From a phage: 64,000 nucleotides of DNA. Positions 11,413 to 61,455 of the stretch are shown here, one piece after another; the first letter of the stretch is position 1, and the number at the start of each line of letters is the position of its first letter. Under the pieces are notes generated by a model. The model searched no databases. It worked only from the letters and a program-made list of their open reading frames with translations, and was not told the origin of the DNA. A program made the position numbers and the translations under genes. The stretch lies in NCBI GenBank assembly GCA_036439915.1, contig GCA_036439915.1_3065.1. The stretch is one strand, 5' to 3'.

Positions 11413-11890
11413 AGAAGTTTCTATTCCTAAAATGGGTCTTAAACATTATAACATTTTAAAAGATGTTAAAGGTCCTGATGAAAATTTAAAACTTCTTATT
11501 GATTCTATTTGTCCGAATTTATCACCGGCAGAAGTTGATTTCGTTTCTATTCATTTATTGGAATTTAATGGAAAGATTAAATCTCGTAAAGAAATAGATG
11601 GTTATACTTATGACATTAATGATGTTTATGTATGCCAAAGATTAGAATTTCAATACCAAGGAAATACATTTTATTTTAGACCTCCTGGAAAATTTGAACA
11701 ATTTTTAACGGTGAGCGATATGTTATCTAAATGCTTGCTTAAGGTCAACGATGAAGTTAAAGAAATTAATTTTCTTGAGATGCCAGCATTCGTTTTAAAA
11801 TGGGCAAATGATATTTTTACAACTTTAGCAATTCCTGGCCCTAATGGTCCAATAACTGGAATTGGCAATATTATTGGATTATTTGAATGA
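11357..11890 (+). CDS. 28: Baseplate hub distal protein gp28
   Basis: 177 aa (T4 gp28 length); start overlaps gp27 3' end. Confidence 0.8.
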
Positions 11891-16052: not shown

Positions 16053-16108
16053 TTCCTCATGTTATGTCAGTAAGATTATTATAACACAACACGAGGGACT
16101 TGTAAACT
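16053..16108 (-). promoter_or_regulatory. Early-type promoter plus leader, copy 1 of a duplicated cassette
   Basis: Minus strand GTTTAC, 18-nt spacer, TATAAT, SD GAGGA; near-identical to 31846-31902. Confidence 0.5.
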
Positions 16109-18164
16109 ACATTTTGAACTTTTTAGACATTCCGTTGATATTAACCAAAGAAGCCAAGATTTGAGAAACTTCGTTTTCCTCTTCTTTTGATTCTTCTACA
16201 AGGAATTGATTAAATCCAGCCATTGGACGAACTTCACCAGTTTCCATTAGATGGTCGCCATCATATACCGATTCTTCTAATTGTTCAGAAGGAGGAACGA
16301 TTGTGCCTTCGATTAGATACTTGTTATAAGCAGTTTCTTTCATCATGTACGTACTCACTTTATTAATCTTCAGCAAAATTCCACGCGGTAGAATAACTTC
16401 AGCTTCTGATGGAAATCCTGATAAATGTCCTGGAACGATAACTTTGATTCGCTCAGCTCCTTTAATTACCATACCCACGCTAGTTTCAGCATCTTCATTG
16501 GCATACGCAGAATGACTACCCATATGCATTAAATCTTCAGCGTCAACAGAACCTTCTCCTTCACCAGAAAATACTGCACTGGAATCATCTAGGGCCATAT
16601 AGTTTTTACCATACTCACCGAAGATATTTGGTTTAAGCGATGTGGATACGAAGTTCTTGAAATAGAACATTTTATTTTCAATATTATGACGTAAAGTTTT
16701 AAAGGTAACTTCTTGGCCACGGTAAAGCGTAGTTCCTGGAGGAAGAACTGATCCTTTGGCAAAAGCAGAATCCATCGTCTCGATGTGTTTAATAGCTCGT
16801 TCCATATATTCTTCACGGGTAGAATCCGGTTTACCTAAAAGGAACGAGTTCATTTCAACATATGAATCTGCACAATAATCTTCAATTACATCAGACTCAG
16901 CCTGAGTTAATCCTTTTGGGGGTACTTCAGTACTTGCATATTCATACGCTTGAGAAGCAGACTCATTAATCAATTTATAAACGCCATTCATGACAAATTG
17001 AATAATAGCTACCTTTTCATCTGGCGTGGCTTTAGAACCTTTAACTAAATCATTGACAATTTTCTTAATAACATCAAAGCTATTAGAAATATTAATGTCA
17101 GCAAGATCACTTAAAATTTTATCAGTTTTATAATCAAAAAATTCTTTATTCTTTAAATATTCTTGAGAACCTTGATATGATATATCGCTCTGTAACTTGA
17201 TAGATGGATCACGTAAACGCGCATGAGCCAATGCAATATGATTTCGGAAGCTTTCTAATTCATAATCACTAGATTTAAAACGGGAAGCACTTCTCATACC
17301 ACCGATAGCTCCTTTGCTGAAGTTTGAACCAACCTGAATAACGCCGGAGTTCATTGGTCCTTCTGCTTTATATACCGGAACTTTAGATTCAAACTCTTGG
17401 TATTTCTTAGCAGCGAAGCTATCACCCTGAAGCGAAGCATCGACAGTAGAATATTGAGCTTGTGCTGCTAATCGACGACTAATTTTAGTTTTCTGAATAA
17501 CAGCTTGATCCGTGCGCTTATCATTTTCTAAAGCAATAGAAGCGGCAACAGCGACAGCTTTAGGAACAGCATTACCTGTTTTAACATCTACATAAACATC
17601 ACCAACCTTTGATTCAACTTTTGTGAATAACTCAGTTGAAATAGGAGGTACACCTGGAATGTCTTCTAAATTGGCATTTTTACGGTAAACCATAATATAT
17701 GCATATTTCTTATCATAGTCCCAGATTTCTTTTAAAAGAACATATCGACCTGCTCCTTTAGTACGTACTAAACGGTCAGCAATAACTTGAATTTGTCGAG
17801 CTGCGCCATTTGTTTTACTCTTTAGTACGCGGAATAAGCATGCGTCAATTTTGTACTGTTTCATTGTCTGAAGAGCAGTATCAAAAACCGCATTAATGGC
17901 ACCAATTGGATTTCCACCCAAGTTTTTAAGTTTAACTAATGATAGTTTCTCATTGACACCTATCATTACGATATGCATCATTTTATCGCCTGGCTTAACG
18001 TTTTTGTTTGTATCACCGCCAGAGGTGTATGTACAAAATCTAAATCCAGGAAGCACGCTTTCTTCACCTGCTTGAATAGCAAAAATTTGAGGTATTTTAT
18101 GCTTAGGATTTAAGTTAACAACCGGCGCCGAAGCGCCGTCAAATAATTCTGTAATAAGTTCCAT
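16107..18164 (-). CDS. Alt-like mono-ADP-ribosyltransferase, second tandem paralog
   Basis: 685 aa; starts MELITELFD; ART motifs YRGQ, FVSTSL, AEVILPRG; 3 nt after upstream alt copy. Confidence 0.8.
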   Translation of the reverse strand: MELITELFDGASAPVVNLNPKHKIPQIFAIQAGEESVLPGFRFCTYTSGGDTNKNVKPGDKMMHIVMIGVNEKLSLVKLKNLGGNPIGAINAVFDTALQTMKQYKIDACLFRVLKSKTNGAARQIQVIADRLVRTKGAGRYVLLKEIWDYDKKYAYIMVYRKNANLEDIPGVPPISTELFTKVESKVGDVYVDVKTGNAVPKAVAVAASIALENDKRTDQAVIQKTKISRRLAAQAQYSTVDASLQGDSFAAKKYQEFESKVPVYKAEGPMNSGVIQVGSNFSKGAIGGMRSASRFKSSDYELESFRNHIALAHARLRDPSIKLQSDISYQGSQEYLKNKEFFDYKTDKILSDLADINISNSFDVIKKIVNDLVKGSKATPDEKVAIIQFVMNGVYKLINESASQAYEYASTEVPPKGLTQAESDVIEDYCADSYVEMNSFLLGKPDSTREEYMERAIKHIETMDSAFAKGSVLPPGTTLYRGQEVTFKTLRHNIENKMFYFKNFVSTSLKPNIFGEYGKNYMALDDSSAVFSGEGEGSVDAEDLMHMGSHSAYANEDAETSVGMVIKGAERIKVIVPGHLSGFPSEAEVILPRGILLKINKVSTYMMKETAYNKYLIEGTIVPPSEQLEESVYDGDHLMETGEVRPMAGFNQFLVEESKEEENEVSQILASLVNINGMSKKFKM

Positions 18165-18167: not shown

Positions 18168-20264
18168 TTATCCTTGAACGAACTTGTAAGGCATGTTTGT
18201 AATATCTATGCAAGACGCAATAATTCCGAGAGATGATTCTGCTTTCTGTTTAACATTTGATGAAACAAATGATGCAAAGTCAACTCTGTCTTCTATTTCA
18301 ATATCATCTGTCATTGCAACTACTTCACCAGTTTCCATTAGACGGTCACCGTCATAAATTACTGATTCGGTGAGTTCTTCCGTAGTCATAACTTCAGTTT
18401 GAATGAGTTTTGTATTATTAGATGTTGTTCCGTCATTATTAGAAGCATCAGTTATTTTATTAACTTTGACCATCAATCCGCGTGGTAGAATTACTTCAGC
18501 TTCTGTTGCTATTCCGAGACTTCCTGGATATACAACATTAACTTTATGAGCTCCATCAATTGCCCATCCTATTTGAACTTTAACGTATTCAGGATTTTCT
18601 TTATACGCTCTTATTTCGTTTGGATTAATAGTTATTCCTTCTTCATTTTTATCAACTGTTAATTCATTACGAGCTTCTGGTTCTAAAAGACCGATACCAG
18701 CATGTGTAATTCCAAAACGTCCAAAAATGATAGGAGTTAAAGAAGTAGATACAAAATTTCTGAAATAGAACACTTTATTTTTAACTAGCGCTTCGTATAT
18801 AGGAGCAGTCATACTTTGAGCACGATAAACTGTAATGCCTTCTGGTATACGGTCACCATTTTCAAAAGCTGAATCTAAATTATTTATCGCAGATTCAATT
18901 TCTTTTTCACTCATTACATCATATCGTTCTGGATTGTAACGACCCAAAAGAAGATTATTGATGTCAGTATATCCTGAACCACAATACTCTCTAATGCCGC
19001 GCTTTTGTGATGGAGTATATTTAGAACCATCACGGGCAATAGTAATATCAATCATTGGACCTGCACCAATTCCAGAAAAGCTATAAATCATTCGTTTGAG
19101 GAATTTAGTTTTTGCTGCGTTCCAGGAATTTTTAGTTATTTCTTCCCAGACTTCATCTGACTGCCCTTTACGGGTTTTATTATGTTTATCAAGCCAATTA
19201 TCTTTATATTCTTCAAAGAATTTATTAATAGCTGCTGCATACTTCTCTAAACATTTTATTGAAGTGGTTGGTTCATTTTTAATCGCATTGAGAATTACAT
19301 CTTTAATTTTTTCAGAAACTTCATTAACCTCACTTTTTGAAAAGAATTTATAGTCATAGTGAAGTTCATCTGCGGTTCCTTCGGCAATAATTTTTGCTGC
19401 CTTAGTTTTAGAAGCTAATGAATTAATTCCAAGCTTCATTTCTTCTGCTTCGGGAATTAAAGGAGCTGTAGCAGGTTTATTGAAATTAGCTGCGGTAGAT
19501 TCATATTTCTGGAATAATTCGCTTTCAAATCTAGAAGATTCTAATGACTGACTTTGCGCAATTGCTCTACGGGAAATTTTAACTTTAACGATTACAGCTT
19601 GGTCAGAACGTTTATCATTTTCTTGCGCAATAGATGCAGCAATTGCCTCATTTTTAGTTACTTGAGCTCCAGTATCTTTATTGATATAAACATCGCCGAC
19701 TTTCGATTCAACTTTAGTAAAGAGCTCGGTACTAATTTCCGGAACTCCTGGAATGTCTTCTAGTGATACATTTTTGCGATGTATAAGAATATATGCATAC
19801 TTTTTATCATAATCCCAGAGTTCCTTAAGAAGGACGTATCTTCCACCTGAACGACTACGGATAAGTCTATCAGCAATAACTTGAATTTGTCGAGCTTGAC
19901 CAGCAGTTTTAGACTTAAGAATACGGAGCATACAGGCATCAATTTTATACTGACGCATCGTCTGCATTGCAACAGTAAAAACTGAATTGATGTAATTAAT
20001 TGGGCTTGGACCGAGACCTTTTAATTTAGCAATTGAACCTTTAGCAGTTAATGTAAAAGGAACAATATGCATCATTTTATCGCCCATTTTTAAATCGCGA
20101 TTAGTATCACCTCCAGATGTATAGGTACATAAACGAAAGCCTGGTTGTTCAATTGCGTCATCAACGTGAACTGAAAAAATTTGTGGTATTTTCTTCTTTG
20201 GATTTAAGTTTGTAATCGGAAGAGTAGTATCTTCGTCAAATAATTCTGTAATAAGTTCCATCAT
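18168..20264 (-). CDS. alt: Alt ADP-ribosyltransferase (virion-packaged)
   Basis: 698 aa; starts MMELITELFD; ART motifs YRAQ, FVSTSL, AEVILPRG; late promoter upstream; adjacent to gene 30. Confidence 0.85.
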   Translation of the reverse strand: MMELITELFDEDTTLPITNLNPKKKIPQIFSVHVDDAIEQPGFRLCTYTSGGDTNRDLKMGDKMMHIVPFTLTAKGSIAKLKGLGPSPINYINSVFTVAMQTMRQYKIDACMLRILKSKTAGQARQIQVIADRLIRSRSGGRYVLLKELWDYDKKYAYILIHRKNVSLEDIPGVPEISTELFTKVESKVGDVYINKDTGAQVTKNEAIAASIAQENDKRSDQAVIVKVKISRRAIAQSQSLESSRFESELFQKYESTAANFNKPATAPLIPEAEEMKLGINSLASKTKAAKIIAEGTADELHYDYKFFSKSEVNEVSEKIKDVILNAIKNEPTTSIKCLEKYAAAINKFFEEYKDNWLDKHNKTRKGQSDEVWEEITKNSWNAAKTKFLKRMIYSFSGIGAGPMIDITIARDGSKYTPSQKRGIREYCGSGYTDINNLLLGRYNPERYDVMSEKEIESAINNLDSAFENGDRIPEGITVYRAQSMTAPIYEALVKNKVFYFRNFVSTSLTPIIFGRFGITHAGIGLLEPEARNELTVDKNEEGITINPNEIRAYKENPEYVKVQIGWAIDGAHKVNVVYPGSLGIATEAEVILPRGLMVKVNKITDASNNDGTTSNNTKLIQTEVMTTEELTESVIYDGDRLMETGEVVAMTDDIEIEDRVDFASFVSSNVKQKAESSLGIIASCIDITNMPYKFVQG

Positions 20265-27784: not shown

Positions 27785-28017
27785 AGTACGCCATACACCC
27801 TTTGTGCTTCAACTAATCCATCAAAATCTAATTTAAGATGCGATATTTGATCGCCATCACCTGGATTCACAATTACTAATACTGAACGAGGAGTTTCGGT
27901 AATAACACGAACCGATGTTTCAGGAAATCGTTCAGAAATCCTATTTACTAATTCCTGCGCAAATAGTTTAACTTTTTCTTGGAATTCTTTAACAGTAATT
28001 GGTTTTTCACTTAGCAT
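27781..28017 (-). CDS. Hypothetical protein (cd.x region)
   Basis: 78-aa ORF. Confidence 0.5.
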   Translation of the reverse strand: MLSEKPITVKEFQEKVKLFAQELVNRISERFPETSVRVITETPRSVLVIVNPGDGDQISHLKLDFDGLVEAQRVYGVL

Positions 28018-28538
28018 GTTGATCCCAGCTCCTTACTTTCAACGTTTTTAACTAATTTGACAGAAACTAATTCAGCATCTTGGGTAATCATTACCGGACC
28101 TTCTTCATACTCTTCAAGATATTCTAGAGCTTTCTTTTTAGCTTCTTCCTTCGTATCAGTTTGAGCATAGATATAGAACATACAACCAGTAATACCTACT
28201 ACTTTCCACTTAATTTCTTTATCAGTTTTAATTTCAAATTTACTTACAGAATCATCTTTTTGAACTTCTTCGAAAAAAGAATATTCTAACATATAAGCAA
28301 TTGAAAATAACGGGCTAACTTTATAGGATTCACCCATTACATCAACAGCTTTATACCAGCAGTCATCAATTTCGCGTTTAATGCTAATAACATTTTTCGC
28401 AGGGTCAATTTTTACTTTAAATGAATTTTCCCCAATAAACTGGGCAATTCGTTTATTAGCCCCGCAAGTTTCATTAAAAATATCTTTATATCCAGCTTTA
28501 AAGCGATAAACCTTATCTTCTTCAAACCATTCGCTCAT
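28011..28538 (-). CDS. Hypothetical protein (cd.x region)
   Basis: 175-aa ORF with early-type promoter upstream. Confidence 0.55.
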   Translation of the reverse strand: MSEWFEEDKVYRFKAGYKDIFNETCGANKRIAQFIGENSFKVKIDPAKNVISIKREIDDCWYKAVDVMGESYKVSPLFSIAYMLEYSFFEEVQKDDSVSKFEIKTDKEIKWKVVGITGCMFYIYAQTDTKEEAKKKALEYLEEYEEGPVMITQDAELVSVKLVKNVESKELGSTC

Positions 28539-29079: not shown

Positions 29080-30469
<1,390 letters not shown>

Positions 30470-30473
<4 letters not shown>

Positions 30474-30700
30474 TTATTTTTCTCAACCAATGATTGAATA
30501 TAATCATGCAGGTCTTTAGATGCTTTACCCCACTTATTTTGATATTCATTTTTGAGATTAGCGCGTGATTGAGCTAATAAAACATCATTAGTTGGAGGTA
30601 AAGATTCTAATCGTTGAATCTGTCGTCCATAAATCATTGCAGCCATCTCGGATTCATAAATTAATCCTTTTAGATGTTCAAATTGATACCATGAAATCAT
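30470..30700 (-). CDS. Hypothetical protein
   Basis: 76-aa ORF. Confidence 0.5.
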
Positions 30701-30996
30701 TTACATTTATCCTCTTTTAGCTCTTGGCGATAATAACATATCATAGTTTTCTGGTCATGTACATATCGTTTTACATCATTAAGCCAAATACGAAATTCCT
30801 GAGAATCTTCAAATGGCATACCTACCCAAGCTTTACCATCAATAACTTTAACTTGCCAAGATAGTTTAGCTTCGTCATATGACTTTATTTGCACAGGCCA
30901 ATTAGGATGAACTGTTTCTTTCTTTACTTCTAGAGGCTTTGTCGAACAACCAACTAGAAGACCAATAGATAATATTACTGCAGATAATTTAATCAT
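30697..30996 (-). CDS. Putative o-spanin (outer-membrane lipoprotein)
   Basis: 99 aa; signal peptide with lipobox LLVGC; directly downstream of i-spanin-like gene. Confidence 0.6.
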   Translation of the reverse strand: MIKLSAVILSIGLLVGCSTKPLEVKKETVHPNWPVQIKSYDEAKLSWQVKVIDGKAWVGMPFEDSQEFRIWLNDVKRYVHDQKTMICYYRQELKEDKCK

Positions 30997-31346
30997 TTAG
31001 AAAGGTCCTGGATGTCTTCTGCGAACTTGTTGAAGGAGTTGTTGATTTGTTTTTCAACCAATCCTGGCTTACGAGCCACCACATCCGCCTTCTTTGCATC
31101 TTTGCGCAGTTTTTCATTTTCACGCTCAATAGCAGCAATCGCCTCACGATTTTTATTATTCATCGCATCAATATAATTATACTGAATTCGCAAATTATTT
31201 AATGCTAAGGCGTTTTCATTGGCCGTTTTTGTAATTTCTACAACAGACGTTTCTAATCTTTCTACCTTATTTTTTAAAATAATAGATGTTCCGCCAAATG
31301 CTATTACAAGTAATAGCAATCCAGCTGTAAAATTACTTACATGCAT
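30993..31346 (-). CDS. Putative i-spanin (Rz-like)
   Basis: 117 aa; N-terminal TM helix then charged coiled-coil-like region. Confidence 0.55.
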   Translation of the reverse strand: MHVSNFTAGLLLLVIAFGGTSIILKNKVERLETSVVEITKTANENALALNNLRIQYNYIDAMNNKNREAIAAIERENEKLRKDAKKADVVARKPGLVEKQINNSFNKFAEDIQDLSK

Positions 31347-31840
31347 AAAGTTTTAATAACCTCTATAATATCGTCTTGAGAAAGACCGTTAATTAAAATA
31401 TGATGTTCAGCTGGAGATTTAGAAATTTTAAAGCATGCCTCAACATCTTCTGCCATATCCGATGCACTACGATTTGGATTACTAATTCCAAGACGATGTT
31501 TTCCCGTCAAAGGATTAACGATGATATAGCATTTGCAGCTATTGATATGAACATTAGGCTGAGTCTGATTAATGAATACTTCGCACTCATACTTAGCGAG
31601 TTGATTTTCTAAAAAGACTTTCATCTCCTCAACCGCATCAGGAAGCATATCACGGGCTTGCTCAAGACGACGATTTCGATATTCTTTAATGGTCGTTTTC
31701 CGTTTGACTTGCTTAGCTAAATCTTTCTTAAGATCGGTGATATATCCAACTCGACGATTTCCTTTAAATACAGAAATCCCATCCGTAGTATCACCGTATG
31801 CTTCAACAACCATTTCAGTAGTAATAAGCTGCAAATCCAT
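31337..31840 (-). CDS. alc: Alc, host transcription shutoff protein
   Basis: 167 aa from second ATG (T4 Alc length); upstream of pseT cluster as in T4. Confidence 0.75.
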   Translation of the reverse strand: MDLQLITTEMVVEAYGDTTDGISVFKGNRRVGYITDLKKDLAKQVKRKTTIKEYRNRRLEQARDMLPDAVEEMKVFLENQLAKYECEVFINQTQPNVHINSCKCYIIVNPLTGKHRLGISNPNRSASDMAEDVEACFKISKSPAEHHILINGLSQDDIIEVIKTLCM

Positions 31841-31845
31841 CATAA

Positions 31846-31902
31846 AGTCCTCATGTTATGTCAGTAAAACTACTATAACACAACACGAGGGACTTGTAAA
31901 CA
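31846..31902 (-). promoter_or_regulatory. Early-type promoter plus leader, copy 2 of duplicated cassette
   Basis: Minus GTTTAC, 18-nt spacer, TATAGT, SD GAGGA; near-identical to 16053-16108. Confidence 0.5.
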
Positions 31903-31904
31903 GC

Positions 31905-33492
<1,588 letters not shown>

Positions 33493-33519
33493 AATAAAAT
33501 GGGCCTTGCGGCCCACTCC

Positions 33520-34698
33520 TTAAAAGTATTTTTTAAAACTCATCATAACTTTATCATCAACATCATTATCAATCTGTGCAACAAGATAAGATGACAGTTC
33601 TACTTCTTGTGGCGCGGATTGAACATTATCAGAATTAAGGTATTCACGAATCCAAGGATATGGATGTTTAACCGGAGCATCGGTAATTGGGCATGGAAGA
33701 CCACACTGTTTCATACGAGATACAGTTAAATAATCAATAAAGCTCCACATGCTATTTGTATTTAATCCAGGAACATCGCCATCTTTAAATAAATGAACTG
33801 CCCAATCTTTTTCTTGGCGGTTAACTTCCATGAAAATATCAACTGCTTCTTGTTCACACTCTTGAGCAATTTTAACCCATTCATCACCATCAGTGCCAAG
33901 TTGAAGTTGACGAATAATATACTGGGTGCCTTTAAGGTGAAGCTGCTCATCACGTGCAATGAACTTCATAATCTTCGCATTACCTTCCATGATTTCCATA
34001 TTTTTATGGAAGTTGAAAGTACATGCAAAGGATACATAAAAACGAATAGCTTCCAGGGCATTGATAACATGAAGGCAGAGATAAAGCGACTTCATCAATG
34101 CATATTTACATTCTTCCACATGCATAAGACTATTTGAATATGCATCTAAATCATATTCATTTTCGGAAAAACATTTAAAAATTTCTTTTGCATTTTCCCA
34201 TTCGCGCGTCTTAACCAGAACATCATCATAATAACGACCAATAGATTCAGCACGTTTCATGATAGCTTTATCTAATACAATCTCATCAAATACCTTTGAC
34301 GGATCAGTATAAAGATTTCGCATAATATGAGTGTATGAACGACTGTGAATAGTTTCACTAAAAGTCCATGTAGCAACCCATGTATCAAGACTTGGGTCTG
34401 AAATTAACGACATAAGTACAGCAGACGGTGCACGACCCTGAATGCTATCTAGAAGTGATTGATACTTCAGGTTATTAGTAAAAATATCTTGCTGATATTG
34501 AGGAAGCTTGTTAAATTGCGCAGCATCCATCATTAAGTTTACTTCTTCAGGACGCCAGAAAAATGACAATTGCTTTTCGGTTAAATCTTCAAAAACTTTA
34601 TGACGTTGAATATCATAACGCGCAATACCAAGACCTGAACCGAAGAACATAGGTTCTTTTAAAACATCAACTGGATTTGTATTAAAAACTGTGCTCAT
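33520..34698 (-). CDS. nrdB: Ribonucleotide reductase beta subunit, uninterrupted
   Basis: 392-aa continuous ORF starting MSTVFNTNPVD; no intron. Confidence 0.9.
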   Translation of the reverse strand: MSTVFNTNPVDVLKEPMFFGSGLGIARYDIQRHKVFEDLTEKQLSFFWRPEEVNLMMDAAQFNKLPQYQQDIFTNNLKYQSLLDSIQGRAPSAVLMSLISDPSLDTWVATWTFSETIHSRSYTHIMRNLYTDPSKVFDEIVLDKAIMKRAESIGRYYDDVLVKTREWENAKEIFKCFSENEYDLDAYSNSLMHVEECKYALMKSLYLCLHVINALEAIRFYVSFACTFNFHKNMEIMEGNAKIMKFIARDEQLHLKGTQYIIRQLQLGTDGDEWVKIAQECEQEAVDIFMEVNRQEKDWAVHLFKDGDVPGLNTNSMWSFIDYLTVSRMKQCGLPCPITDAPVKHPYPWIREYLNSDNVQSAPQEVELSSYLVAQIDNDVDDKVMMSFKKYF

Positions 34699-34749
34699 AA
34701 ATTTTCCGCTTAGTTAATAGTTGGTGACTCGTCCGTGAGTCAAATTATA

Positions 34750-37014
34750 TCATAATTTACAGGATGAACAATCTTCAGCTTTTGGAGTTTCTATTTCATA
34801 ATCATCAGTACCAGAACCGTCACGGGTATTATGATAATAGAAATTTTTTCCGCCAAAATACCAAAAATACAAAAGGTCATCAATCATTATTGACATTGGA
34901 ACCTTTCCTTTTGGAAAAATCTGTGGGTCATAATATGTATTCGCCGAAGCTGATTGACAAACCCATTTCAGCATAATAGCTACCTGCGTAAGATAAGGTT
35001 TATTACCTTTCTTAGCTAATTTCCATGTATAATCATAAAGGTCTATGTTATGCTCAATATTGGGCACGACTTGATTAAAGGAGCCCTCTTTTGATTCTTT
35101 AACAGAGACTGGTCCACGTGGAGGCTCGATACCGTTTGTACTGTTAGAAACTTGGGAAGATGACTCACATGGCATAAGTGCTGATAATGTGCTATTACGG
35201 ATGCCAAAGAGCTTAAGGTCTTCCCGCAGCGACGACCAGTCACAAACGTATTTTGGAGCTGCGATTTGGTCAATCTTTTTATTGTACCAGTCGATAGGTA
35301 ATTCGCCTCGAGACCAACGAGTGTCTGAATAATATTCACAAGGTCCTTTTTCTTTGGCGAGTTTAATGGATGCTTTAATGAGTCCATACTGTAATCTCTC
35401 AAATAGTTCATGTGTTAAATCGTTAGCATCTTCATAAGAAGCAAAGTTACTTGCCAACCAAGCTGCATAGTTAGTAACACCTACACCGAGGTTACGACGC
35501 TTTTTAGCTTTTTCTGCTTCAGGAACTGGATATCCTTGGTAATCCAAAAGATTATCAAGAGCACGAACCTGGACTTCTGCCAATTCATTAATTTTATCTT
35601 GGTCTTGCCAGTCAAAATTATCCAGTACGAATGCAGAGAGAGTACACAATCCAATTTCAGCATCAGGACTATTCACATCATTTGTTGGAATAGCAATTTC
35701 ACAGCACAAGTTACTCTGACGAATAGGTGCCTTTTCACGAATAAACGGAGTATAGTTATTCGTATTATCAATGAACTGTACATAAATCCTTGCTGTTCCT
35801 GAGCGTTCAGTCATGAGCAATTCAAATAGTTCACGAGCTTTAATACGCTTTTTACGAATATTAGGGTCTTTTTCTGCGGCTTCATACAATTCACGGAAAC
35901 GGTCTTGGTCTTTAAAATAAGAATAATAAAGCTCTCCGCCCATTTCATGGGGACTGAACAAAGTAATGTAATCGTTCTTTCCGAATCGTTCCATCATCAA
36001 ATCATTCAGCTGAACACCATAATCCATATGACGAATGCGGTTTTCTTCTACGCCTTTGTTATTTTTCAAAACAAGAAGATTTTCAACTTCCAAATGCCAA
36101 ATAGGATAATAAGCAGTAGCAGCGCCGCCACGAATTCCACCCTGTGAGCATGATTTAACAGCAGTCTGAAAATGTTTCCAAAAAGGAATAACACCAGTAT
36201 GGCGTACTTCACCCATGCCAATCTTAGAACCTTCAGCACGAATCATACCAACGTTAATACCAATTCCAGCGCGTTTAGAGATATATTCAACAATTGAAGC
36301 GGAAGCCTTATTGATAGACTTTAATGAATCACCTGCCTCAATAACAACGCATGAACTAAACTGCCGGGTTGGAGTACGGCAACCAGCCATAATAGGAGTT
36401 GGCAATGAAATCTGTCGAGTAGATACTGCTTCATAAAAACGGATAACGTGTTTTAATCTATCAACAGGTTCATCTTGATGCAATGCCATTCCAATAGTCA
36501 TAAATGCAAACTGTGGAGTTTCATAAATTTGACCAGTGGTTTTATCTTTAACTAGATATTTTTCTTTTAATTGCATCGCCCCGGAATAAGTAAATTCCAT
36601 ATCCCGCTCGTGCTTAATTTTTGATTCTAAAAATGTAATTTCTTCTGCAGAATATTTTGACAACAATTCAGGGTCGTATTTACCTTCATTTACACAGTAA
36701 GAAATATGGTCAATAAATGAACGTGGTTCATACTGCCCATAAACATGCTTACGAAGAGCAAACATTAAACAGCGTGCAGCTACATATTGATAATCAGGTT
36801 CTTCAACCGAAATAGAATTCGCAGCGGCCTTAATGACAATAGTCTGAATATCATCAGTTGTCATTCCATCACGGAGATATGATTTAATATTTTCATATAA
36901 TTCATAAGGATCTACAGATGTTCCTTCAGCTGCCCAAGATAAAACTTTAATAATTTTTTGCGGGTCAAAGCTCTGAGAAACACCACTACTTTTGATAACA
37001 TTAATTAATTGCAT
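34750..37014 (-). CDS. nrdA: Ribonucleotide reductase alpha subunit
   Basis: 754 aa (T4 NrdA length); 51-bp gap to nrdB. Confidence 0.9.
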   Translation of the reverse strand: MQLINVIKSSGVSQSFDPQKIIKVLSWAAEGTSVDPYELYENIKSYLRDGMTTDDIQTIVIKAAANSISVEEPDYQYVAARCLMFALRKHVYGQYEPRSFIDHISYCVNEGKYDPELLSKYSAEEITFLESKIKHERDMEFTYSGAMQLKEKYLVKDKTTGQIYETPQFAFMTIGMALHQDEPVDRLKHVIRFYEAVSTRQISLPTPIMAGCRTPTRQFSSCVVIEAGDSLKSINKASASIVEYISKRAGIGINVGMIRAEGSKIGMGEVRHTGVIPFWKHFQTAVKSCSQGGIRGGAATAYYPIWHLEVENLLVLKNNKGVEENRIRHMDYGVQLNDLMMERFGKNDYITLFSPHEMGGELYYSYFKDQDRFRELYEAAEKDPNIRKKRIKARELFELLMTERSGTARIYVQFIDNTNNYTPFIREKAPIRQSNLCCEIAIPTNDVNSPDAEIGLCTLSAFVLDNFDWQDQDKINELAEVQVRALDNLLDYQGYPVPEAEKAKKRRNLGVGVTNYAAWLASNFASYEDANDLTHELFERLQYGLIKASIKLAKEKGPCEYYSDTRWSRGELPIDWYNKKIDQIAAPKYVCDWSSLREDLKLFGIRNSTLSALMPCESSSQVSNSTNGIEPPRGPVSVKESKEGSFNQVVPNIEHNIDLYDYTWKLAKKGNKPYLTQVAIMLKWVCQSASANTYYDPQIFPKGKVPMSIMIDDLLYFWYFGGKNFYYHNTRDGSGTDDYEIETPKAEDCSSCKL

Positions 37015-37331
37015 AAGTCCTCAACTTGAAAATCGTCTTTAAACAATCGGTTAACTATATGAGCTATTATATCACCATGACACGGCTTTGGTTTACATGT
37101 GCATCCTAGCCTCATTCCACGTAAAGGCTCTAAATGTGCTTTAGTTATTTCTCCGGATTTAATTCGACGTATAAAATCTTTTTTGAATAATTCAATGGCA
37201 GCCTCCCGGCTGCCAGCATCTTTACCGACGTAATTTCCCCAAAATGTACCACGGTGAATATTAACATCAAAGTCGGATTTATATTTATTCACTACCCGGC
37301 ATAGACTGCCCGCGCGGTTGTAGGTGTTCAT
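37005..37331 (-). CDS. Hypothetical Cys/His-motif protein (nrdA.1 position)
   Basis: 108 aa; motif [11 protein letters not shown]. Confidence 0.5.
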
Positions 37332-37560
37332 ATTGTTCTTCCGTTAAAACAGTAATATCGTAGTAACAGTCAGAAGAAGTTTTAACTGTGGAAATTTTAT
37401 TATCAAAATACTCACGAGTCATTTTATGAGTATAATATTTTTTGCCATAAATGATAATAGGCTGATTTGGTCCTGGAACTTCTAACTCACTTGGATTAGG
37501 AAGTGTAAAAAGAACTACACCAGAAGTATCTTTAAATCGTAAAATCATATATCCTCGCAA
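37285..37560 (-). CDS. Hypothetical protein (nrdA.2 position)
   Basis: 91-aa ORF between td and nrdA. Confidence 0.5.
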
Positions 37561-37568
37561 TAATAAAA

Positions 37569-38429
37569 TTACACCGCCATCTTTCCTTTAATAGGAGGAT
37601 GTGATTCATAGTTGTTAAGAACAAAATTATGAGGCTTTGCAAATTGACTCAACCAAAATACCTGCGATTCTGTGTCCCATTCATCAAATTCATCTGGAAA
37701 TTTTAATTGTAATTCGCATAAATCCATAGGTTCACGACATAAAATTTCTTTACATTGTTCTACGTGATTCATATAGATATGAGTATTACCACCAGAAAAT
37801 ATCAAATCTCCCGGAATAAGATTACACATTTTAGCTACAATATGAACTAACGTAGCATATGATGCAATATTAAATGGAAGACCGAGGAAAACATCTACCG
37901 AACGTTGATACCACTGAAGGTCAAGGTATCCATTACGCACATTAAACTGATAGAACATGTGACAAGGCGGTAATGCCATTTGCTTGAGTTCAGCTGGATT
38001 CCATGCTGAAACAACTTGACGTCTATCATTTGGCAGTTTTTTAATACGATCAATAACTTCTACAATTTGGTCTACACCGCCAAAATCACGCCACTGTTTT
38101 CCATAAATTGGACCAAGTTCACCGCTATGGTATCCTAAATCTTTTGCTTGATTTTCGTAATTTTCATCCCAGACTGTTTTGCCTTGAATTAATGAATCAT
38201 GTTGAATTAATCGCAAATCATTTACATTTGTGCTTCCTGATAAAAACCATATTAGCTCAGCAATGCATGCATTCCAGGCGAGCTTTTTAGTTGTTACTGC
38301 AGGAAAACCTTTAGTTAAATCCCAACGCAATTTAGTACCGAACAGAGCAATTGTTCCTGTGCCTGTTCGGTCATCAGTTTCATAACCATTTTCAAAAATG
38401 TCTTTAATTAAATCTTGGTATTGTTTCAT
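37569..38429 (-). CDS. td: Thymidylate synthase, uninterrupted
   Basis: 286-aa continuous ORF; no intron or intron endonuclease ORF. Confidence 0.9.
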
Positions 38430-38474
38430 TTAGTACCTTATATAAATTATAATACATTTTATGAAGCTAAATAA

Positions 38475-38822
38475 TCAATACGGTTTAGCATCAAATTTTC
38501 TCTCAATTTCAGGCGTGAAATATAATTCTTTACCGCGTTTGGAAAAGCGACCAATAATATGATAATTATTCTCATCAAACGTGATATTACCAATATCCAT
38601 AGCTTTCAACCAAATATCGATATTTCTATCCAGCTTTATGTCAAAATTCCAATACGGAGAACTATTACCGAAAATACTACAAGCGGATTCAGTGAAACAA
38701 CTGCTATAAATCTTGTCTTTAGGAACTACTAATTGATAGACACCTTTAATAAACTGAGGACCCTGCCACTTTGGCTGTTTCTCATCTTTTTCTAATAGAA
38801 TAGGGTAATAATTAAAATTCAT
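38475..38822 (-). CDS. Hypothetical protein inserted between frd and td
   Basis: 115-aa ORF in the 412-bp frd-td spacer; ATG 19 nt after frd stop. Confidence 0.55.
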   Translation of the reverse strand: MNFNYYPILLEKDEKQPKWQGPQFIKGVYQLVVPKDKIYSSCFTESACSIFGNSSPYWNFDIKLDRNIDIWLKAMDIGNITFDENNYHIIGRFSKRGKELYFTPEIERKFDAKPY

Positions 38823-38841
38823 ATTTCCGCCGCGCGTTATT

Positions 38842-39668
<827 letters not shown>

Positions 39669-39679
39669 ATTATCTCCTA

Positions 39680-40012
39680 TTAAAAAGGATCAGGAACATA
39701 TCCGCTAGCTTTAATCATTTTAATTAACGTTAACATTCCTTTGTTAACTGCTCGTGAGATTTCATCAAAAACTTCATCACTAAAAAGTTCTAACACGCCC
39801 TTCTGAACTTTTAATTTACAGCCAACAATTTCTTCATCGCCTATAGTAAATTCATTACCACCAATTCCACCGAAAAACTTAATTACACCAGTTAACTGTC
39901 TTCCACGAGAATATGGGTCGTGTGATAAAGTAATATGAGTCACCCCGGGTACAGTTTTAAATTGACAGCGAATGTTTACTTGAGCAATTCCAGTTACATG
40001 AATGTCAGACAT
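39680..40012 (-). CDS. Hypothetical protein (frd.2 position)
   Basis: 110-aa ORF. Confidence 0.55.
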   Translation of the reverse strand: MSDIHVTGIAQVNIRCQFKTVPGVTHITLSHDPYSRGRQLTGVIKFFGGIGGNEFTIGDEEIVGCKLKVQKGVLELFSDEVFDEISRAVNKGMLTLIKMIKASGYVPDPF

Positions 40013-40022
40013 AATATTTTCC

Positions 40023-40265
40023 TCAAACAGACTTTTTCACAATTTTCCAGTCAGCTTTAAACTGATCAACGTCAGAGTGATAAATCCAAAATCCTGCACT
40101 TTCTCCATCTTCATAAAGCGGACATCCATCACATTCATCTTCCCATCCCATGCCACGTAAAAGATGTTCAGCTTTTTCAACAAGTTCAGAATCTTTACCG
40201 ATAATATTAAAATACCATTTACCTCTAACTTCTGAATCTTTGATGCTCTGACGTTGTAATCTCAT
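40023..40265 (-). CDS. Hypothetical protein (frd.3 position)
   Basis: 80-aa ORF. Confidence 0.5.
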   Translation of the reverse strand: MRLQRQSIKDSEVRGKWYFNIIGKDSELVEKAEHLLRGMGWEDECDGCPLYEDGESAGFWIYHSDVDQFKADWKIVKKSV

Positions 40266-40364
40266 TTTATTCTCCTTAGCAAGCTTTAATCAAAAGATAT
40301 AAACAAACTAACATAACTGCTGCCATAATATAAGGTGCGAACATTTTCTTTTCTCCATTAGTTT

Positions 40365-41199: not shown

Positions 41200-42108
41200 T
41201 TAAAGATCATTCAAAAGATCATCCAGATCCGTGTCATCAGCACTAGATGAACTGTTAGAGCTTGAACTCATAAAATCATCTTCAGTTTTTGTGTTAAAAT
41301 CATCAACATTGAATGCATCCAAATCATCAGCAACTTTATCGGCTTTCTTAGCAGCTGTTGCCGCAGCACCACCCATAATAGCAGTTCCCATAACTTGACT
41401 AAATTTAGTATTCAGTTCTTCAAATGATTTGAACTTATCTTTAGAAGTCATTTCAGAAAGATCAACCATTTGCTCAAACAGTTCTTTCTGGAAAGATTCA
41501 TTATCAATGTTTGGAATTGCAGACTGATTCAAGAATTTAGATTCGTCGTAATTACTGAAACCAGAAACCTGTTTGACTTTCAGTACAAAGTTAGCACCTT
41601 CCCACGGACAAGTTACATCAACCGGAGTTTCACCCATTTCAACATCAACTGCAATCATTGCATTGATTTTATCCCAGATTTTCTTACCGAAACGGTATTT
41701 AAATACTTTACCTTCATTTTCTGGAGCAGCTGGGTCTTTTACTACAAGAATGTTAGCCCAGTAAGAAGTTTTACGTTTAACAAGACCGTACTCTTTATTG
41801 TCAGTGTTGTATAAATCATTTTTACTGATGTACTGACATACTGGACAAGAATCGTAATCACCGTGGGTAGATGAACAGTTTTCAATATACCATTTACCAT
41901 TTTTCTTGAAACCGTGATTTACAAGAATTGCGAATGGTGCTTGTTCATCATTTTTAGACGGAAGAAAACGAATTACTGCTTGACCGTTACCCGCATTGTC
42001 GAGTTTCAGTTTCCACTCGCCTTTATCTTCAGAAGAAAAACCACCTTTATTTCCAGCCAGTTTAGCCATTTGTGCAGCGAGTTCAGCAGTAGATTTACGT
42101 TTAAACAT
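41200..42108 (-). CDS. 32: Single-stranded DNA-binding protein gp32
   Basis: 302 aa; starts [17 protein letters not shown]; zinc-site Cys/His; acidic Ser/Asp-rich C-terminus. Confidence 0.95.
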
Positions 42109-42191
42109 TTTTATTTCCTTTTTAATTTAATTAACAGTTGGTGCTATGACGATGTATGACCTCATAGCTGGTCAGTGAGATAATTATAATT

Positions 42192-42199
42192 TATTTATA
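42192..42199 (-). promoter_or_regulatory. Possible late promoter (TATAAATA) upstream of gene 32
   Basis: Minus-strand TATAAATA about 85 nt upstream of gene 32 ATG. Confidence 0.35.
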
Positions 42200-42207
42200 A
42201 TAAGCAA

Positions 42208-42861
42208 TTAATACTTACAAGATTTCACAGTTTCAATAAAAACTTTTTTAGCTTCCTGTGAATCGATATTTAAAATTTTTCTATAAGCTTTTAACTTTAT
42301 AGAATAATTATTCCAGACTAAATTATCAGTCTGTTCATCGTGTTTATCAATTATATTTAAAAATGAATCAAGCAAGATAAACGTCTCAAACGAAATTATG
42401 TTCGATTGCAGAAGTTTAAAAATATAACTTGACTGAACCTTTGGATTATATTCAAAGATTTCTTTAAAAGCAGAAACTTCAACTTTTTTACTAAAATAAT
42501 AAATGTTGCGAATATCTTCTTCAAACTTAAATTTAATTTGCTTTAAGCGTCCGATATATTCACGATAAAACACAAGTGCATCAGCGTCAGAGATGTCACC
42601 AATCCAAGCATCCTGGTTAGCAACAAGATTGCTTATAAAGATTAAAGCAAGTTCCTTTAATTTATATTTTTCTGATAACTTCTGGAAAAAATACTTATCC
42701 CTTCGCTTTTGATAAGCGGCATCAGACACCCGCATGCACCAATTATACTTAATAACATCATACTTTCCATTCATATGTTGTTTTATCATTAAGTATAATT
42801 TATAAACTGATTTACCATCAATATATCTTTCACCACCAGCAGGCATGCGGAGTTTAATCAT
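42208..42861 (-). CDS. 59: Helicase loader gp59
   Basis: 217 aa (T4 gp59 length); directly upstream of gene 32, nothing in between. Confidence 0.85.
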   Translation of the reverse strand: MIKLRMPAGGERYIDGKSVYKLYLMIKQHMNGKYDVIKYNWCMRVSDAAYQKRRDKYFFQKLSEKYKLKELALIFISNLVANQDAWIGDISDADALVFYREYIGRLKQIKFKFEEDIRNIYYFSKKVEVSAFKEIFEYNPKVQSSYIFKLLQSNIISFETFILLDSFLNIIDKHDEQTDNLVWNNYSIKLKAYRKILNIDSQEAKKVFIETVKSCKY

Positions 42862-50194: not shown

Positions 50195-53100
50195 ATGGCT
50201 ACTTTAAAACAAATACAATTTAAAAGAAGCAAAACGGCAGGTCAACGTCCAGCTGCTTCAGTATTAGCCGAAGGTGAATTGGCTATAAACTTAAAAGATC
50301 GTGTACTTTTTACTAAAGATGATCAAGGAAATATTATTGACTTAGGTTTTGCTAAAGGCGGTAGTATTGATGGGAATGTTATTCATAAAGGCAATTATAA
50401 CCAAACTGGCGATTATACTTTAAACGGTACATTCGCCCAGACTGGTAATTTTAATTTAACCGGTATTGCTCGAGTAACTCGTGATATTATTGCTGCTGGG
50501 CAGATTATGACTGAAGGCGGAGAACTTATTACAAAAAGTTCAGGAACGGCACACGTTCGTTTTCATGATTCCGCCGACCGTGAACGCGGTATTATTTTTT
50601 CTCCTGCTAATGACGGTTTAACTACACAAGTAGTTAACATCAGAGTTCAAGATTACAAAGCTGGTTCAGAAAGCACTTTCGCTTTTAATGGAAATGGTTT
50701 GTTTTCTTCACCAGAAGTTTTTGGGTGGAAATCTGTATCAACTCCGGTAATTTATACCAATAAAGTTATCACCAATAAAAAAGTTAAAGATGATTATGAC
50801 ATCTATTCGATGGCAGACAATGTTCCATTGTCTGAAAGCACTACTGCTATTAATCATCTTCGTGTTATGCGTAATGCAGTTGGTTCTGGTATTTTCCATG
50901 AAGTTAAAGATAATGATGGAATAACATGGTATAGTGGAGATGGATTAGACGCTTATCTTTGGTCATTTACTTGGAGCGGCGGAATTAAATCAAGTCACTC
51001 AATTTCCATCGGTTTAACACCCGGACCTAAGGATTACTCAATATTAGGACCGTCTAGTATCGCTTTAGGAGATAATGATACTGGATTTAAATGGCATCAA
51101 GACGGATATTATTTCAGTGTTAACAATGGCACAAAAACGTTTTTATTTAGTCCCAGCGAAACAACTAGCCTAAGAAAATTTGTAGCTGGATATTCTACTA
51201 ACGGAACCGATTTAACTACTCCTCCAACTGAAAATTATGCTCTTGCTACTGTAGTGACATACCATGATAATAACGCGTTTGGGGATGGTCAGACTCTTTT
51301 AGGATATTATCAAGGCGGTAACTATCATCATTATTTCCGCGGCAAGGGCACTACAAACATTAATACTCACGGCGGTTTGTTAGTTACTCCAGGCAATATT
51401 GACGTTATTGGTGGTTCTGTTAATATCGATGGTAGAAATAATGCTTCTACAGCGATGTTTAAAGGTAACACAACAGGTAGTAGTTCTGTGGATAACATGA
51501 CAATTTCTGTGTGGGGTAATACATTTACTAATCCTAGCGAAGGTAATCGCAAAAATGTCATGGAAATTTCCGATGCAACTAGCTGGATGAGCTATATTCA
51601 AAGACTTACTACTGGTGAAGTAGAAATGAACGTTAACGGTTCATTTGAATCATCTGGTGTTACTGCTGGAAATAGAGGAGTTCACACAACAGGCGAAATT
51701 TCATCTGGAGCAGTGAATGCTCTTCGCATTTGGAATGCAGATTATGGAGCCATTTTTAGACGTTCAGAAGGTAGTCTTCATATTATTCCAACTGCTTATG
51801 GTGAAGGCAAAAATGGTGATATTGGTCCACTTCGTCCATTTAGCATAGCTTTAGATACTGGTAAGGTTGTTATTCCAGATTTAGAATCAAGTTATAACAC
51901 GTTTGCTGCAAATGGCTACATTAAATTTGCTGGTCATGGGGCTGGTGCCGGCGGTTATGATATTCAGTATTCACAAGCTGCTCCTATTTTCCAAGAAATC
52001 GATGATGCTGCTGTAAGCAAATATTATCCTATTGTTAAACAGAAGTTTTTAAACGGTAAAGCTGTCTGGTCTTTAGGTACTGAAATTAATTCAGGTACAT
52101 TTGTTTTACATCATCTAAAAGAAGATGGTTCACAAGGCCATACATCAAGATTTAATGCTGATGGTACAGTTAATTTCCCCGATAATGTTCAAGTCGGCGG
52201 CGGTGAAGCTACTATTGCTCGTAATGGTAATATCTTCTCTGATATTTGGAAAACATTTACTTCTGCCGGAGAAACCACAAATATTCGCGATGCAATAGCT
52301 ACTCGTGTTTCTAAAGAAGGCGACACGATGACTGGTAAATTGACTTTATCAGCAGGCAATGATGCTCTCGTTTTAACTGCGGGCGAAGGTGCTTCATCAC
52401 ATATCCGTAGTGATGTAGGTGGTACAAATAACTGGTATATAGGCAAAGGTGGCGGCGACAGCGGTCTAGGTTTTTACAGTTACATTACACAGGGTGGTGT
52501 ATACATAACAAATAACGGCGAAATATCGCTTTCTCCTCAAGGTCAAGGAACATTTAATTTTAATAGAGATCGCATTCATATAAATGGCACACAATGGACT
52601 GCACACCAAGCTGGTGATTGGGGAAACCAATGGCGACAAGAAGCGCCGATATTTGTAGATTTTGGCAATGTCGGTAATGATAGTTATTACCCGATTATCA
52701 AAGGAAAATCTGGTATTACTAATGAAGGATACATATCGGGTGTTGATTTTGGTATGCGACGCACTACTAACCAATGGGCTCAGGCTATTATCCGTGTTGG
52801 TAACCAGGAAAATGGTTCTGACCCACAAGCTATCTATGAATTTCACCACAATGGAGTTCTGTATGCTCCTAATATGGTTCAAGCTGGAGCAAGATTATCA
52901 GCTGGCGGTGGTGACCCTGTATGGACCGGCCCGTGTCTTGTTATTGGTGATAATGATACTGGATTAGTTCATGGTGGTGACGGCCGAATCAATATGGTTG
53001 CAAATGGTGTGCATATTGCTTCGTGGTCTTCATCTTATCAGTCTCATCCTGGCCTTTGGGATTCAAACGGTGCTTTTTGGACAGAAGTTGGAAGAGCTAT

Positions 53101-53506
53101 CGTTTCTCATGGGCATCTCGTTCAGGCAAATGATAGTTATTCAACGTTTGTCCGTGATGTTTATGTCCGTTCTGATATTCGTGTTAAAAAGGACCTAGTT
53201 AAATTTGAAAATGCTTCTGAGAAGCTTTCAAAAATTAATGGTTACACTTATATGCAGAAGCGAGGCCTAGATGAAGAAGGTAATCAGAAATGGGAACCAA
53301 ACGCTGGGTTAATTGCTCAAGAAGTTCAAGCTATTTTACCTGAATTGGTTGAAGGCGATCAGGATAGTGAAGCTTTACTTCGTTTGAACTATAACGGTGT
53401 AATTGGTTTAAATACAGCTGCAATCAATGAGCATACTGCAGAAATTGCAGAACTTAAGTCAGAGATTGAAGAGCTTAAAAAATTAGTTAAATCATTGTTA
53501 AAATAA
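50195..53506 (+). CDS. 37: Long tail fibre distal subunit gp37 with C-terminal intramolecular-chaperone-like domain
   Basis: 1103 aa; C-terminal ~110 aa has coiled-coil tail [21 protein letters not shown] typical of auto-cleaved chaperone domains. Confidence 0.85.
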
Positions 53507-53537
53507 AATGAGGGGCTTCGGCCCCTTGGAGGTTTAT

Positions 53538-54311
53538 ATGGCAGTTGAAGGACCGTGGGTAGGATGGTCTGCGAGGGTACAAACTGGAGACCCTTGGATG
53601 GGTGGTGCCGCACAGAGATTGAGAATGGGAATTCCGTTTTGGATGAGTAATATGATAGGTCGATCTGTTGAAGTAATTCACACGCTTGGAGCAGACCATA
53701 ACTTCAATGGTCAATGGTTCCGAGATAGATGTTTTGAGGCAGGTAGTACACCTATAGTGTTTAATATCACTGGAGATTTAGTATCATATTCTAAAGATGT
53801 TCCTTTATTCTTCATGTACGGAGATACACCGAATGAATATGTTCAGTTGAATATACACGGCGTAACGATGTATGGACGTGGCGGGAATGGCGGTAGCAAT
53901 AGTCCCGGATCGGCTGGGGGTCATTGTATTCAAAATGATATTGGTGGAAGACTAAGAATTAATAATGGCGGAGCTATTGCAGGCGGCGGTGGCGGCGGCG
54001 GCGGCGGTAACTACGGTAGACTATCATTTGGTGGTGGTGGTGGTCGCCCATTCGGTGCTGGCGGGTCTTCCTCTCATATGGGTGCTGGTGCAACCGCTGG
54101 CACCATTTCCGCTCCGGGTGCAGGATCTGTCGGTAAGGGGTCTCTTTGGGTATATACAGGCGGGAATGGCGGTGAAGTTGGCTCAGCAGGAGGTAGATGT
54201 AATATTCATGGGAACGGTACAGAATATAACGGTGGTGCTGCTGGTTATGCCGTCATAGGGTCTACACCGACATGGCAAAACGTTGGAGCAATATATGGTC
54301 CAAGAGTATAA
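53538..54311 (+). CDS. 38: T2-type tail fibre tip adhesin gp38
   Basis: 257 aa from MAVEGPW (SD GGAGG); Gly-rich motifs alternating with variable segments. Confidence 0.85.
53982..54045 (+). repeat. GGC/GGT triplet runs encoding poly-Gly in gp38
   Basis: ggcggcggtggcggcggcggcggcggt and ggtggtggtggtggt. Confidence 0.7.
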
Positions 54312-61439: not shown

Positions 61440-61455
61440 CGTTTTGTGAAAATTT

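Follow-up and report, generated by a model that had tools for sequence, protein, structure and literature searches.

That T-even phages differ in which of the T4 introns and seg and mob genes they carry has been recognised since the late 1980s, and T2 is the classical recipient in T4 × T2 homing crosses. When T2 is crossed with T4, T2 inherits I-TevI, mobE and the nrdB intron (I-TevIII) at ~2× the input ratio (PMC2790892, Table 2). T4 itself is the exception among its relatives, most of which have few insertions (PMC2988022). Here we compare the td-nrdA-nrdB-32-59 region of a 64,000-nucleotide stretch of phage DNA (the window) with the corresponding regions of T4 (NC_000866), T2 (AP018813) and other close relatives. 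Judging from its sequence, the window very probably (a probability of roughly 0.8) derives from a T2/RB51/wV7-type Tequatrovirus in which the T4 selfish elements were never fixed at td-nrdA-nrdB-32-59, at 23/24 or at inh/uvsW, and which has kept the known targets and would be expected to act as a recipient of T4 elements.

Arrangement of the td, nrd and gene 32 region

The genes, spacers and empty insertion points are as follows (window coordinates).

839–921, no strand: spacer between genes 23 and 24, the empty segD slot; window 849–910 corresponds to T4 106521–107311 (blastn)
5640–5689, no strand: inh-uvsW spacer, the empty segE slot; window 5676–5696 corresponds to T4 112044–112680 (blastn)
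33520–34698, minus strand: nrdB, uninterrupted, 392 aa; ORF list, Pfam Ribonuc_red_sm 3e-36, aligned to spliced T4 and T2 nrdB
34022–34025, minus strand: empty nrdB intron insertion site (in T4, a 598-nt intron with I-TevIII); blastn breakpoints at T4 138457/139058, no RF00028 signal
34699–34749, minus strand: nrdA-nrdB spacer, 51 bp, without nrdB.1, mobE or hef; ORF list, blastn, T2 spacer also 51 bp
34750–37014, minus strand: nrdA, uninterrupted, 754 aa; ORF list, Pfam ATP-cone, Ribonuc_red_lgN and Ribonuc_red_lgC
37569–38429, minus strand: td, uninterrupted, 286 aa; ORF list, Pfam Thymidylat_synt 1.9e-94 over the full model, collinear with spliced T4 td
41200–42108, minus strand: gene 32; ORF list
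42109–42207, minus strand: gene 59-gene 32 spacer, 99 bp, without segG, with a gene 32 operator-like sequence and a TATAAATA late-promoter motif; ORF list, blastn, T2 and RB51 spacers also 99 bp
42208–42861, minus strand: gene 59; ORF list

When compared with T4 by blastn, the window has the same gene order and ~95% identity over most of its length, and it is collinear with T4 except for clean deletions at five places. These are the td intron with I-TevI (window 37880|37881 corresponds to T4 143546/144564; 1017 bp missing), the nrdB intron with its defunct I-TevIII, nrdB.1 and mobE (window 34698–34754, T4 139719–140420), segG (window 42171–42207, T4 147918–148542), and segD and segE. Conversely, T4 lacks several small ORFs found in the window. 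An earlier note, made from the letters alone, had described td and nrdB as single uninterrupted ORFs, nrdA and nrdB as 51 bp apart without mobE, and genes 32 and 59 as 99 bp apart without segG; the ORF list and blastn bear this out, with td collinear and nrdB in line with the spliced T4 exons. The empty segD and segE slots are an addition to what that note had listed. In short, neither td nor nrdB is split, and the spacers between the genes are short native ones.

Base for base, the layout is that of RB51, wV7 and JY01 and also of T2, the last being collinear with window positions 29236–39678 in one 10.4-kb HSP (94.7% identity). T2 shares with the window an uninterrupted nrdB of 1179 nt, an uninterrupted td of 861 nt, the 51-bp and 99-bp spacers, a 115-aa ORF between frd and td, the empty segD and segE slots, and the same MobE-target allele bar one nucleotide. 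By gene lengths, both spacers and collinearity, the window has the T2-type element-free td-nrd-32 arrangement, and the length of its NrdB (392 aa) is of the T2 type, whereas T4 has 388 aa once its gene is spliced. For gene 32, identity is 95.0% to T2 and 93.9% to T4, and the 5′ part of nrdB is 96–99% identical to T2 and only 77–84% to T4. The differences from T2 include an extra 110-aa DUF7247 ORF after frd, a patch of nrdB and the 3′ patch of td. The td allele is 87.5% identical to both T4 and T2, the low value against T2 being due to the divergent 3′ patch, and at nrdB aa ~171–200 T4, T2 and the window phage hold three unrelated alleles. Both nrdB and td, essential genes targeted by homing endonucleases, contain localized hypervariable patches.

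Searches for nuclease domains and group I introns

The earlier note had also claimed that no GIY-YIG or HNH ORF other than denA is present in the window, naming a profile search of the ORFs as what could contradict it. That search, run with Pfam on every ORF (100 of 100 gene-like ORFs), was negative, and tblastn agrees. The sole GIY-YIG match among these ORFs is as follows.

33082–33516, minus strand: denA (endonuclease II); Pfam GIY-YIG (PF01541), E 5.4e-6, above the gathering score; 99.3% identical to T4 DenA over 144 aa; phrog_1111, 2e-65

The gene is a denA orthologue, and its product is EndoII, not a homing endonuclease. HNH, NUMOD, LAGLIDADG and Hint domains were not detected by Pfam in the 100 gene-like ORFs. 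When all 15 T4 homing endonucleases were searched against the six-frame translated window by tblastn, only denA was matched, with nothing else below E 0.02; the nine GIY-YIG enzymes gave no match better than E 0.02, and the best E-value for the HNH-type enzymes (MobA–E, I-TevIII) was 0.32. The SegF match (E 0.02, 25% identity) was rejected as chance, since it lies in frame inside a 698-aa Alt paralogue with a Pfam ADP-ribosyltransferase domain.

For the group I intron family RF00028, Rfam gave no match in 33000–40300 and none in the whole window at E ≤ 0.1. As a positive control, both T4 introns were detected at permissive thresholds (40.3 and 35.7 bits). The Rfam gathering thresholds miss these genuine introns too, and the null result obtained for the window at that setting was therefore set aside in favour of E-value thresholds. 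Sub-threshold matches to L20_leader, Yar_1, Atu_C8 and CrcZ, far below their gathering scores, were regarded as chance. Given the uninterrupted td and nrdB and the lack of any RF00028 or tblastn match, the T4 group I introns and I-TevI/I-TevIII are absent, as had been proposed. The window holds no homing-endonuclease domain and no group I intron, and this absence of the T4 introns and homing endonucleases is real and not due to chance.

Some small ORF with no T4 counterpart might still encode a homing endonuclease of a non-canonical kind; candidates are a 175-aa ORF at 28011–28538 and the 115-aa one located between frd and td. There is a precedent in Hef of phage U5, reportedly a homing endonuclease without a known motif; moreover, these small ORFs are polymorphic for presence, with sharp borders, a 12-nt direct repeat flanks the 115-aa ORF, and the candidates all fall in function-unknown PHROG families. 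However, Pfam shows no nuclease domain in them, the four T4-absent ORFs searched have no PDB relative by sequence, a length of 81–118 aa would leave little room for a site-specific endonuclease plus its DNA-binding module, and many T4-type accessory ORFs that are not nucleases share the same pattern. We consider such a hidden enzyme extremely improbable. A broader idea is almost equally far-fetched, namely that an arms race with endonucleases yet to be discovered left its footprints in the patches at nrdB aa ~171–200 and td aa ~231–268, or that a small repeat-flanked T4-absent ORF such as the 115-aa one is a Hef-like, motif-less mobile nuclease.

Element-free and invaded relatives

The element-free state is the common one among T4 relatives. 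In the phage collection, most records are uninterrupted or empty at each of the four loci: 716 of 1078 at the td junction, 1134 of 1291 at the nrdB junction, 637 of 1000 at nrdA-nrdB and 514 of 668 at 32-59. Since T4 is the exception and not the norm (PMC2988022), the framing of the earlier note, which measured the window against T4, is T4-centric.

The Tequatrovirus genomes JY01, wV7, RB51 and AugustSocin are 97–98% identical to the window over 33000–39500 in one alignment piece, with the same gene set, and differ from it in this region by point differences only; in RB51 the gene lengths and spacers are identical to those of the window. Two other close relatives, ECML-134 and vB_Eco_F25 (backbone ~96–97% identical), have the window-type td allele including the divergent 3′ patch, but their td is interrupted by an I-TevI-bearing intron that is 97.5% identical to that of T4. 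Short T4-like co-conversion tracts lie by the insertion site: in ECML-134 the T4-like stretch of td runs exactly from −22 to +6, and the td of vB_Eco_F25 was converted on the exon-I side only. In REP2/REP3 (backbone 97.4% identical), nrdB and td are uninterrupted as in the window, but nrdA is split into two ORFs by a 236-aa annotated homing endonuclease.

Because the presence of these elements varies among genomes that are >96% identical, gains and losses both occur in the group, and an ancestor of the window phage may have had the T4 elements and lost them precisely, e.g. by recombination with intron-less alleles. This secondary loss appears unlikely, given that tblastn and Rfam reveal no element remnants, that the flanks are T2-like and not T4-like, and that the spacer lengths are identical to those of T2 and RB51. 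A single genome cannot separate loss from a history without invasion, and the present content is the same either way.

Predicted targets and expected behaviour in mixed infection with T4

The earlier note had expected this genome to be a recipient for homing in mixed infection with T4, and had asked for an alignment of the exon junctions. Two predicted target regions were delimited.

34568–34585, minus strand: predicted MobE target region (nrdB nt 114–131), a T2-type allele with one substitution (G129A), then the conserved FFWRPEE-coding block; three-way alignment
37870–37907, minus strand: predicted I-TevI homing site, with the empty insertion site between 37881 and 37880; alignments, requirements from PMC2988022

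For I-TevI, we looked for 5′-CNNNG-3′ 23–27 nt upstream of the insertion site and for a 20-bp primary binding region centred on that site. At the td junction the insertion site is empty and the CAACG cleavage motif at −27 to −23 (td nt 523–527) is unchanged, in agreement with 5′-CNNNG-3′. Across −27 to +18 there are seven substitutions relative to T4, the same number as in T2, and in the 20-bp core, compared by sequence, the window differs from T4 at four positions (16/20 nt identical) and T2, whose site is cleaved in vivo, at five (15/20). I-TevI tolerates site changes in general but needs CXXXG (PMC2988022). For MobE, the site is defined as the T2-type nrdB nt 114–131 followed by the FFWRPEE-coding block (PMC2790892); the window is identical to T2 at 17 of 18 nt and throughout this block, and the one nucleotide of the polymorphic block that differs, nt 129, is 3–7 nt away from the mapped nicks. 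Thus, both the I-TevI and the MobE target sites look usable.

These substitutions could also be read as resistance. In that case the phage would not be a recipient, because changes to its td homing site, MobE target and SegG target would shield it from endonucleases of the T4 type. The seven td changes include one, −19 A>G, that is private to the window and found in neither T4 nor T2; the change in the MobE block is likewise private, and td is unusually divergent. On the other hand, the critical CAACG motif is intact, T2 is an efficient recipient despite carrying an equal number of changes, most of them at the same wobble positions, I-TevI is generally tolerant of site changes (PMC2988022), and the intron sits in the same td allele family in ECML-134 and vB_Eco_F25. 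Resistance of this kind is therefore rather improbable.

The reading of the window phage as a probable recipient of T4 elements is well supported, if indirectly. We infer it from the collinearity with T2 at the same sizes and spacers, the intact CAACG, the T2-like MobE target, and the intron carried by ECML-134 and vB_Eco_F25 in the same td allele. With the known target sequences retained, a co-infecting T4 would be predicted to act on the window DNA. Its I-TevI would cut td 23/25 nt upstream of the insertion site, its MobE would nick the DNA near nrdB nt 122–126, and its SegG would cut within gene 32. With the T4 copy as the source, repair would then import the td intron, mobE with the defunct nrdB intron, and segG, plus flanking T4 markers, the whole process being the same as homing and marker exclusion in T4 × T2 crosses. 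As the I-TevIII of T4 is itself defunct, the only route open to the nrdB intron would be trans-homing driven by MobE.

The finding holds but is an ordinary one; it carries little weight alone, for T-even phages were already known to vary in their T4 introns and seg/mob genes. Its practical value is modest: for annotators, it means that the split td and nrdB of T4 are not to be expected in this genome. The genome and its near-identical relatives, some with the td intron and others without it, form a natural matched set for homing and for the lengths of co-conversion tracts.

Empty element slots in a T2-type arrangement

Comparison by megablast with the phage collection showed that Tequatrovirus genomes including JY01, AugustSocin, wV7 and RB51 match the full length of 33000-39500 at 97-98% identity, and T4 105673-168903 (gene 23 to rIIB) was collinear with the whole 64-kb window in blastn, mostly at ~95% identity. 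In the alignment with T4, each T4 mobile element corresponds to a clean gap in the window.

Genes (from the ORF list) and absent T4 elements (from blastn against T4)
33520-34698, minus strand, nrdB, 392 aa
34750-37014, minus strand, nrdA, 754 aa
37569-38429, minus strand, td, 286 aa
41200-42108, minus strand, gene 32
42208-42861, minus strand, gene 59
between 37880 and 37881, td intron, absent
34022-34025, nrdB intron, absent
34698-34754, nrdB.1 and mobE, absent
42171-42207, segG, absent
849-910, segD, absent
5676-5696, segE, absent

Both T4 introns were among these gaps, in agreement with the earlier note, which had described td and nrdB as free of them; the absence of segD and segE goes beyond it. 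Pfam confirmed thymidylate synthase, at full length, and the two subunits of ribonucleotide reductase. The ORF coordinates give 51 bp for the nrdA-nrdB spacer and 99 bp for the 32-59 spacer, exactly the lengths that had been claimed.

Phage T2 (AP018813) has an nrdB of 1179 nt, a td of 861 nt, the same 51-bp and 99-bp spacers and a 348-nt ORF between frd and td, and its genes 23/24 and inh/uvsW adjoin. Window 29236-39678 aligned with T2 as a single 10.4-kb HSP, and the layout is shared by RB51, whose annotation comes from the T4 community. In a sliding identity profile, the nrdB 5' part and spacer (34450-34749) reached 96-99% identity with T2 but only 77-84% with T4; it is this segment that co-travels with mobE in crosses. 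The window arrangement is that of T2, a state already known and common.

Several local differences were also observed. Within nrdB, a hypervariable patch (34087-34184; nt ~515-612, aa ~171-200) encodes 25-29 aa that are mutually unrelated in T4, T2 and the window and accounts for the difference in NrdB length (392 vs 388 aa), while outside it the three proteins are nearly identical. A td 3' patch (37600-37749, aa ~231-268) has 59% identity to T4 and to T2, which agree mutually, against 89-97% for the rest of td; the relatives ECML-134 and vB_Eco_F25 (F25) have the window-type patch. Two Alt-type ADP-ribosyltransferase genes lie in tandem, both full-length (16107-18164, 685 aa; 18168-20264, 698 aa), as in T2, whereas the upstream copy in T4 has decayed to alt.-1/alt.-2. 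The distal tail fibre region (50195-54311) is of T2 type and does not align to T4; its gp37 bears a Peptidase_S74 chaperone domain at the C terminus, and after it comes a Gp38 adhesin of 267 aa (PF05268). Between frd and td, where stop and start codons overlap in T4, lies a 115-aa ORF (38475-38822, phrog_1928) flanked by a 12-nt direct repeat (38421-38432 and 38837-38848, 11 of 12 positions shared) whose sequence is that of the T4 frd-stop/td-start junction; for RB51, the record remarks 'flanked by 9 bp repeat'.

Searches for introns and homing endonucleases

At gathering cut-offs, Rfam reported no intron in the window, and the same setting also misses the genuine T4 introns. These score 35.7 (nrdB) and 40.3 bits (td) against a cut-off of 50 bits for the group I intron model RF00028, so a default scan cannot declare a T-even genome intron-free. 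The scan was therefore redone with E-value thresholds, under which RF00028 recovered both T4 introns as positive controls (td, 40.3 bits, 11596-11826; nrdB, 35.7 bits, 6509-6749; T4 extract coordinates) and gave no match in the T4-equivalent stretch or in the whole 64-kb window.

All 100 gene-like, non-overlapping ORFs of at least 35 aa were scanned against Pfam: 10 T4-absent or neighbouring ORFs singly, 74 ORFs below 260 aa as linker-joined strings, and 26 larger ones by reference. The endonuclease II gene denA (33082-33516) was the only GIY-YIG match, and no HNH, NUMOD, LAGLIDADG or Hint family was found in these 100 ORFs. The claim that denA is the sole ORF of GIY-YIG/HNH type was thus borne out by the very profile search of small ORFs that had been named beforehand as its refuting test, which found no other GIY-YIG or HNH domain in the 100 ORFs. 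When all 15 T4 homing endonucleases together with DenA, Nrd.1 and gp49 were used as tblastn queries against the window, denA alone was found (99.3% identity). The next best match, to SegF (E 0.02), falls within the reading frame of an Alt-type ADP-ribosyltransferase and was treated as chance. Since the window shows 64 kb of the genome, the phage may have homing endonucleases elsewhere.

Six small ORFs are wholly or partly absent from T4: 28011-28538 (175 aa), 30171-30473 (100 aa), 39423-39668 (81 aa), 39680-40012 (110 aa, DUF7247), 61118-61474 (118 aa) and 61946-62275 (109 aa, DUF7418); Pfam detected no nuclease domain in them. At the T4 denB.1 position, a 64-aa ORF (62312-62506) matched PF21825 (crAss001_48-related protein, E 2.9e-17). 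The T4-absent ORFs fall in PHROGs families of uncharacterised function. A homing endonuclease without a recognisable motif, for which Hef is a precedent (PMC2988022), would escape domain searches; that one is encoded among the T4-absent ORFs we consider very improbable, as they gave no Pfam nuclease family and the four of them compared with the PDB gave no relative there.

Frequency of the uninterrupted state

In the phage collection, 197 records have the T4 td intron, 118 have the nrdB intron and 142 have segG at >=80% coverage; the T4-type nrdB.1-mobE block occurred in 20 records, and 143 gave partial mobE matches. For comparison, ~520-580 records have this region at >=80% identity. The empty junctions were each probed with a short query running across them, with the following counts.

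Uninterrupted junctions among matched records of the phage collection
td: 716/1078
nrdB: 1134/1291
nrdA-nrdB: 637/1000
32-59: 514/668

As most records are uninterrupted at these junctions, absence of the elements is the norm among those surveyed. A precise secondary loss of the elements, indistinguishable from never having been invaded, seems unlikely to us and would leave the description of present content unchanged. In REP2 and REP3 (97.4% identity to the window here), nrdA is broken into two ORFs by an annotated 236-aa homing endonuclease (REP3 extract 2930-3640), which is another invasion at the same nrd hotspot.

Target sites and probable natural homing

The I-TevI site spans 38 bp, of which the enzyme binds 20 bp with the insertion site in their middle; many substitutions are tolerated, and 5'-CXXXG-3' is required at the cut, 23/25 nt upstream (PMC2988022). 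In the window, the CAACG motif (td nt 523-527) is intact, and the site differs from that of T4 at -22, -19, -6, -4, +3, +6 and +18, counted from the intron insertion site. None of the seven changes alters an amino acid, as Td matches the T4 protein exactly across the stretch. The T2 site differs from T4 at -22, -7, -6, -4, +3, +6 and +18. MobE nicks T2 nrdB at nt 122-126, inside a polymorphic block (nt 114-131) followed by FFWRPEE-coding sequence (PMC2790892); at this block the window has the T2 allele with one change (nt 129), and the FFWRPEE block is identical.

The td allele of ECML-134 and F25, which are ~96-97% identical to the window in this region, is of the window type down to its peculiar 3' patch, and it is split by an I-TevI intron with 97.5% identity to that of T4. 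At sites where window and T4 differ, ECML-134 is T4-like throughout from -22 to +6 and window-like at nt 501-513 and +18; F25 is T4- or T2-like on the exon-I side only and window/T2-like from +3 on. I-TevI homing yields tracts that start at the cut and are skewed to the exon-I side (PMC2988022). The tracts in both phages match this pattern, comparative evidence that the td allele family of the window has probably received the intron in nature.

It could be argued that changes in the td and nrdB targets protect the phage, given that the -19 change in td and the nt-129 change in nrdB are private to the window, and that its td reaches only 87.5% identity with T4 and with T2 alike. The comparison with T2 and the two relatives that bear the intron both count against such resistance, which we regard as improbable. 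Together with the retained target sites, they support the expectation that this phage, in mixed infection with T4, would be a recipient of T4 elements.
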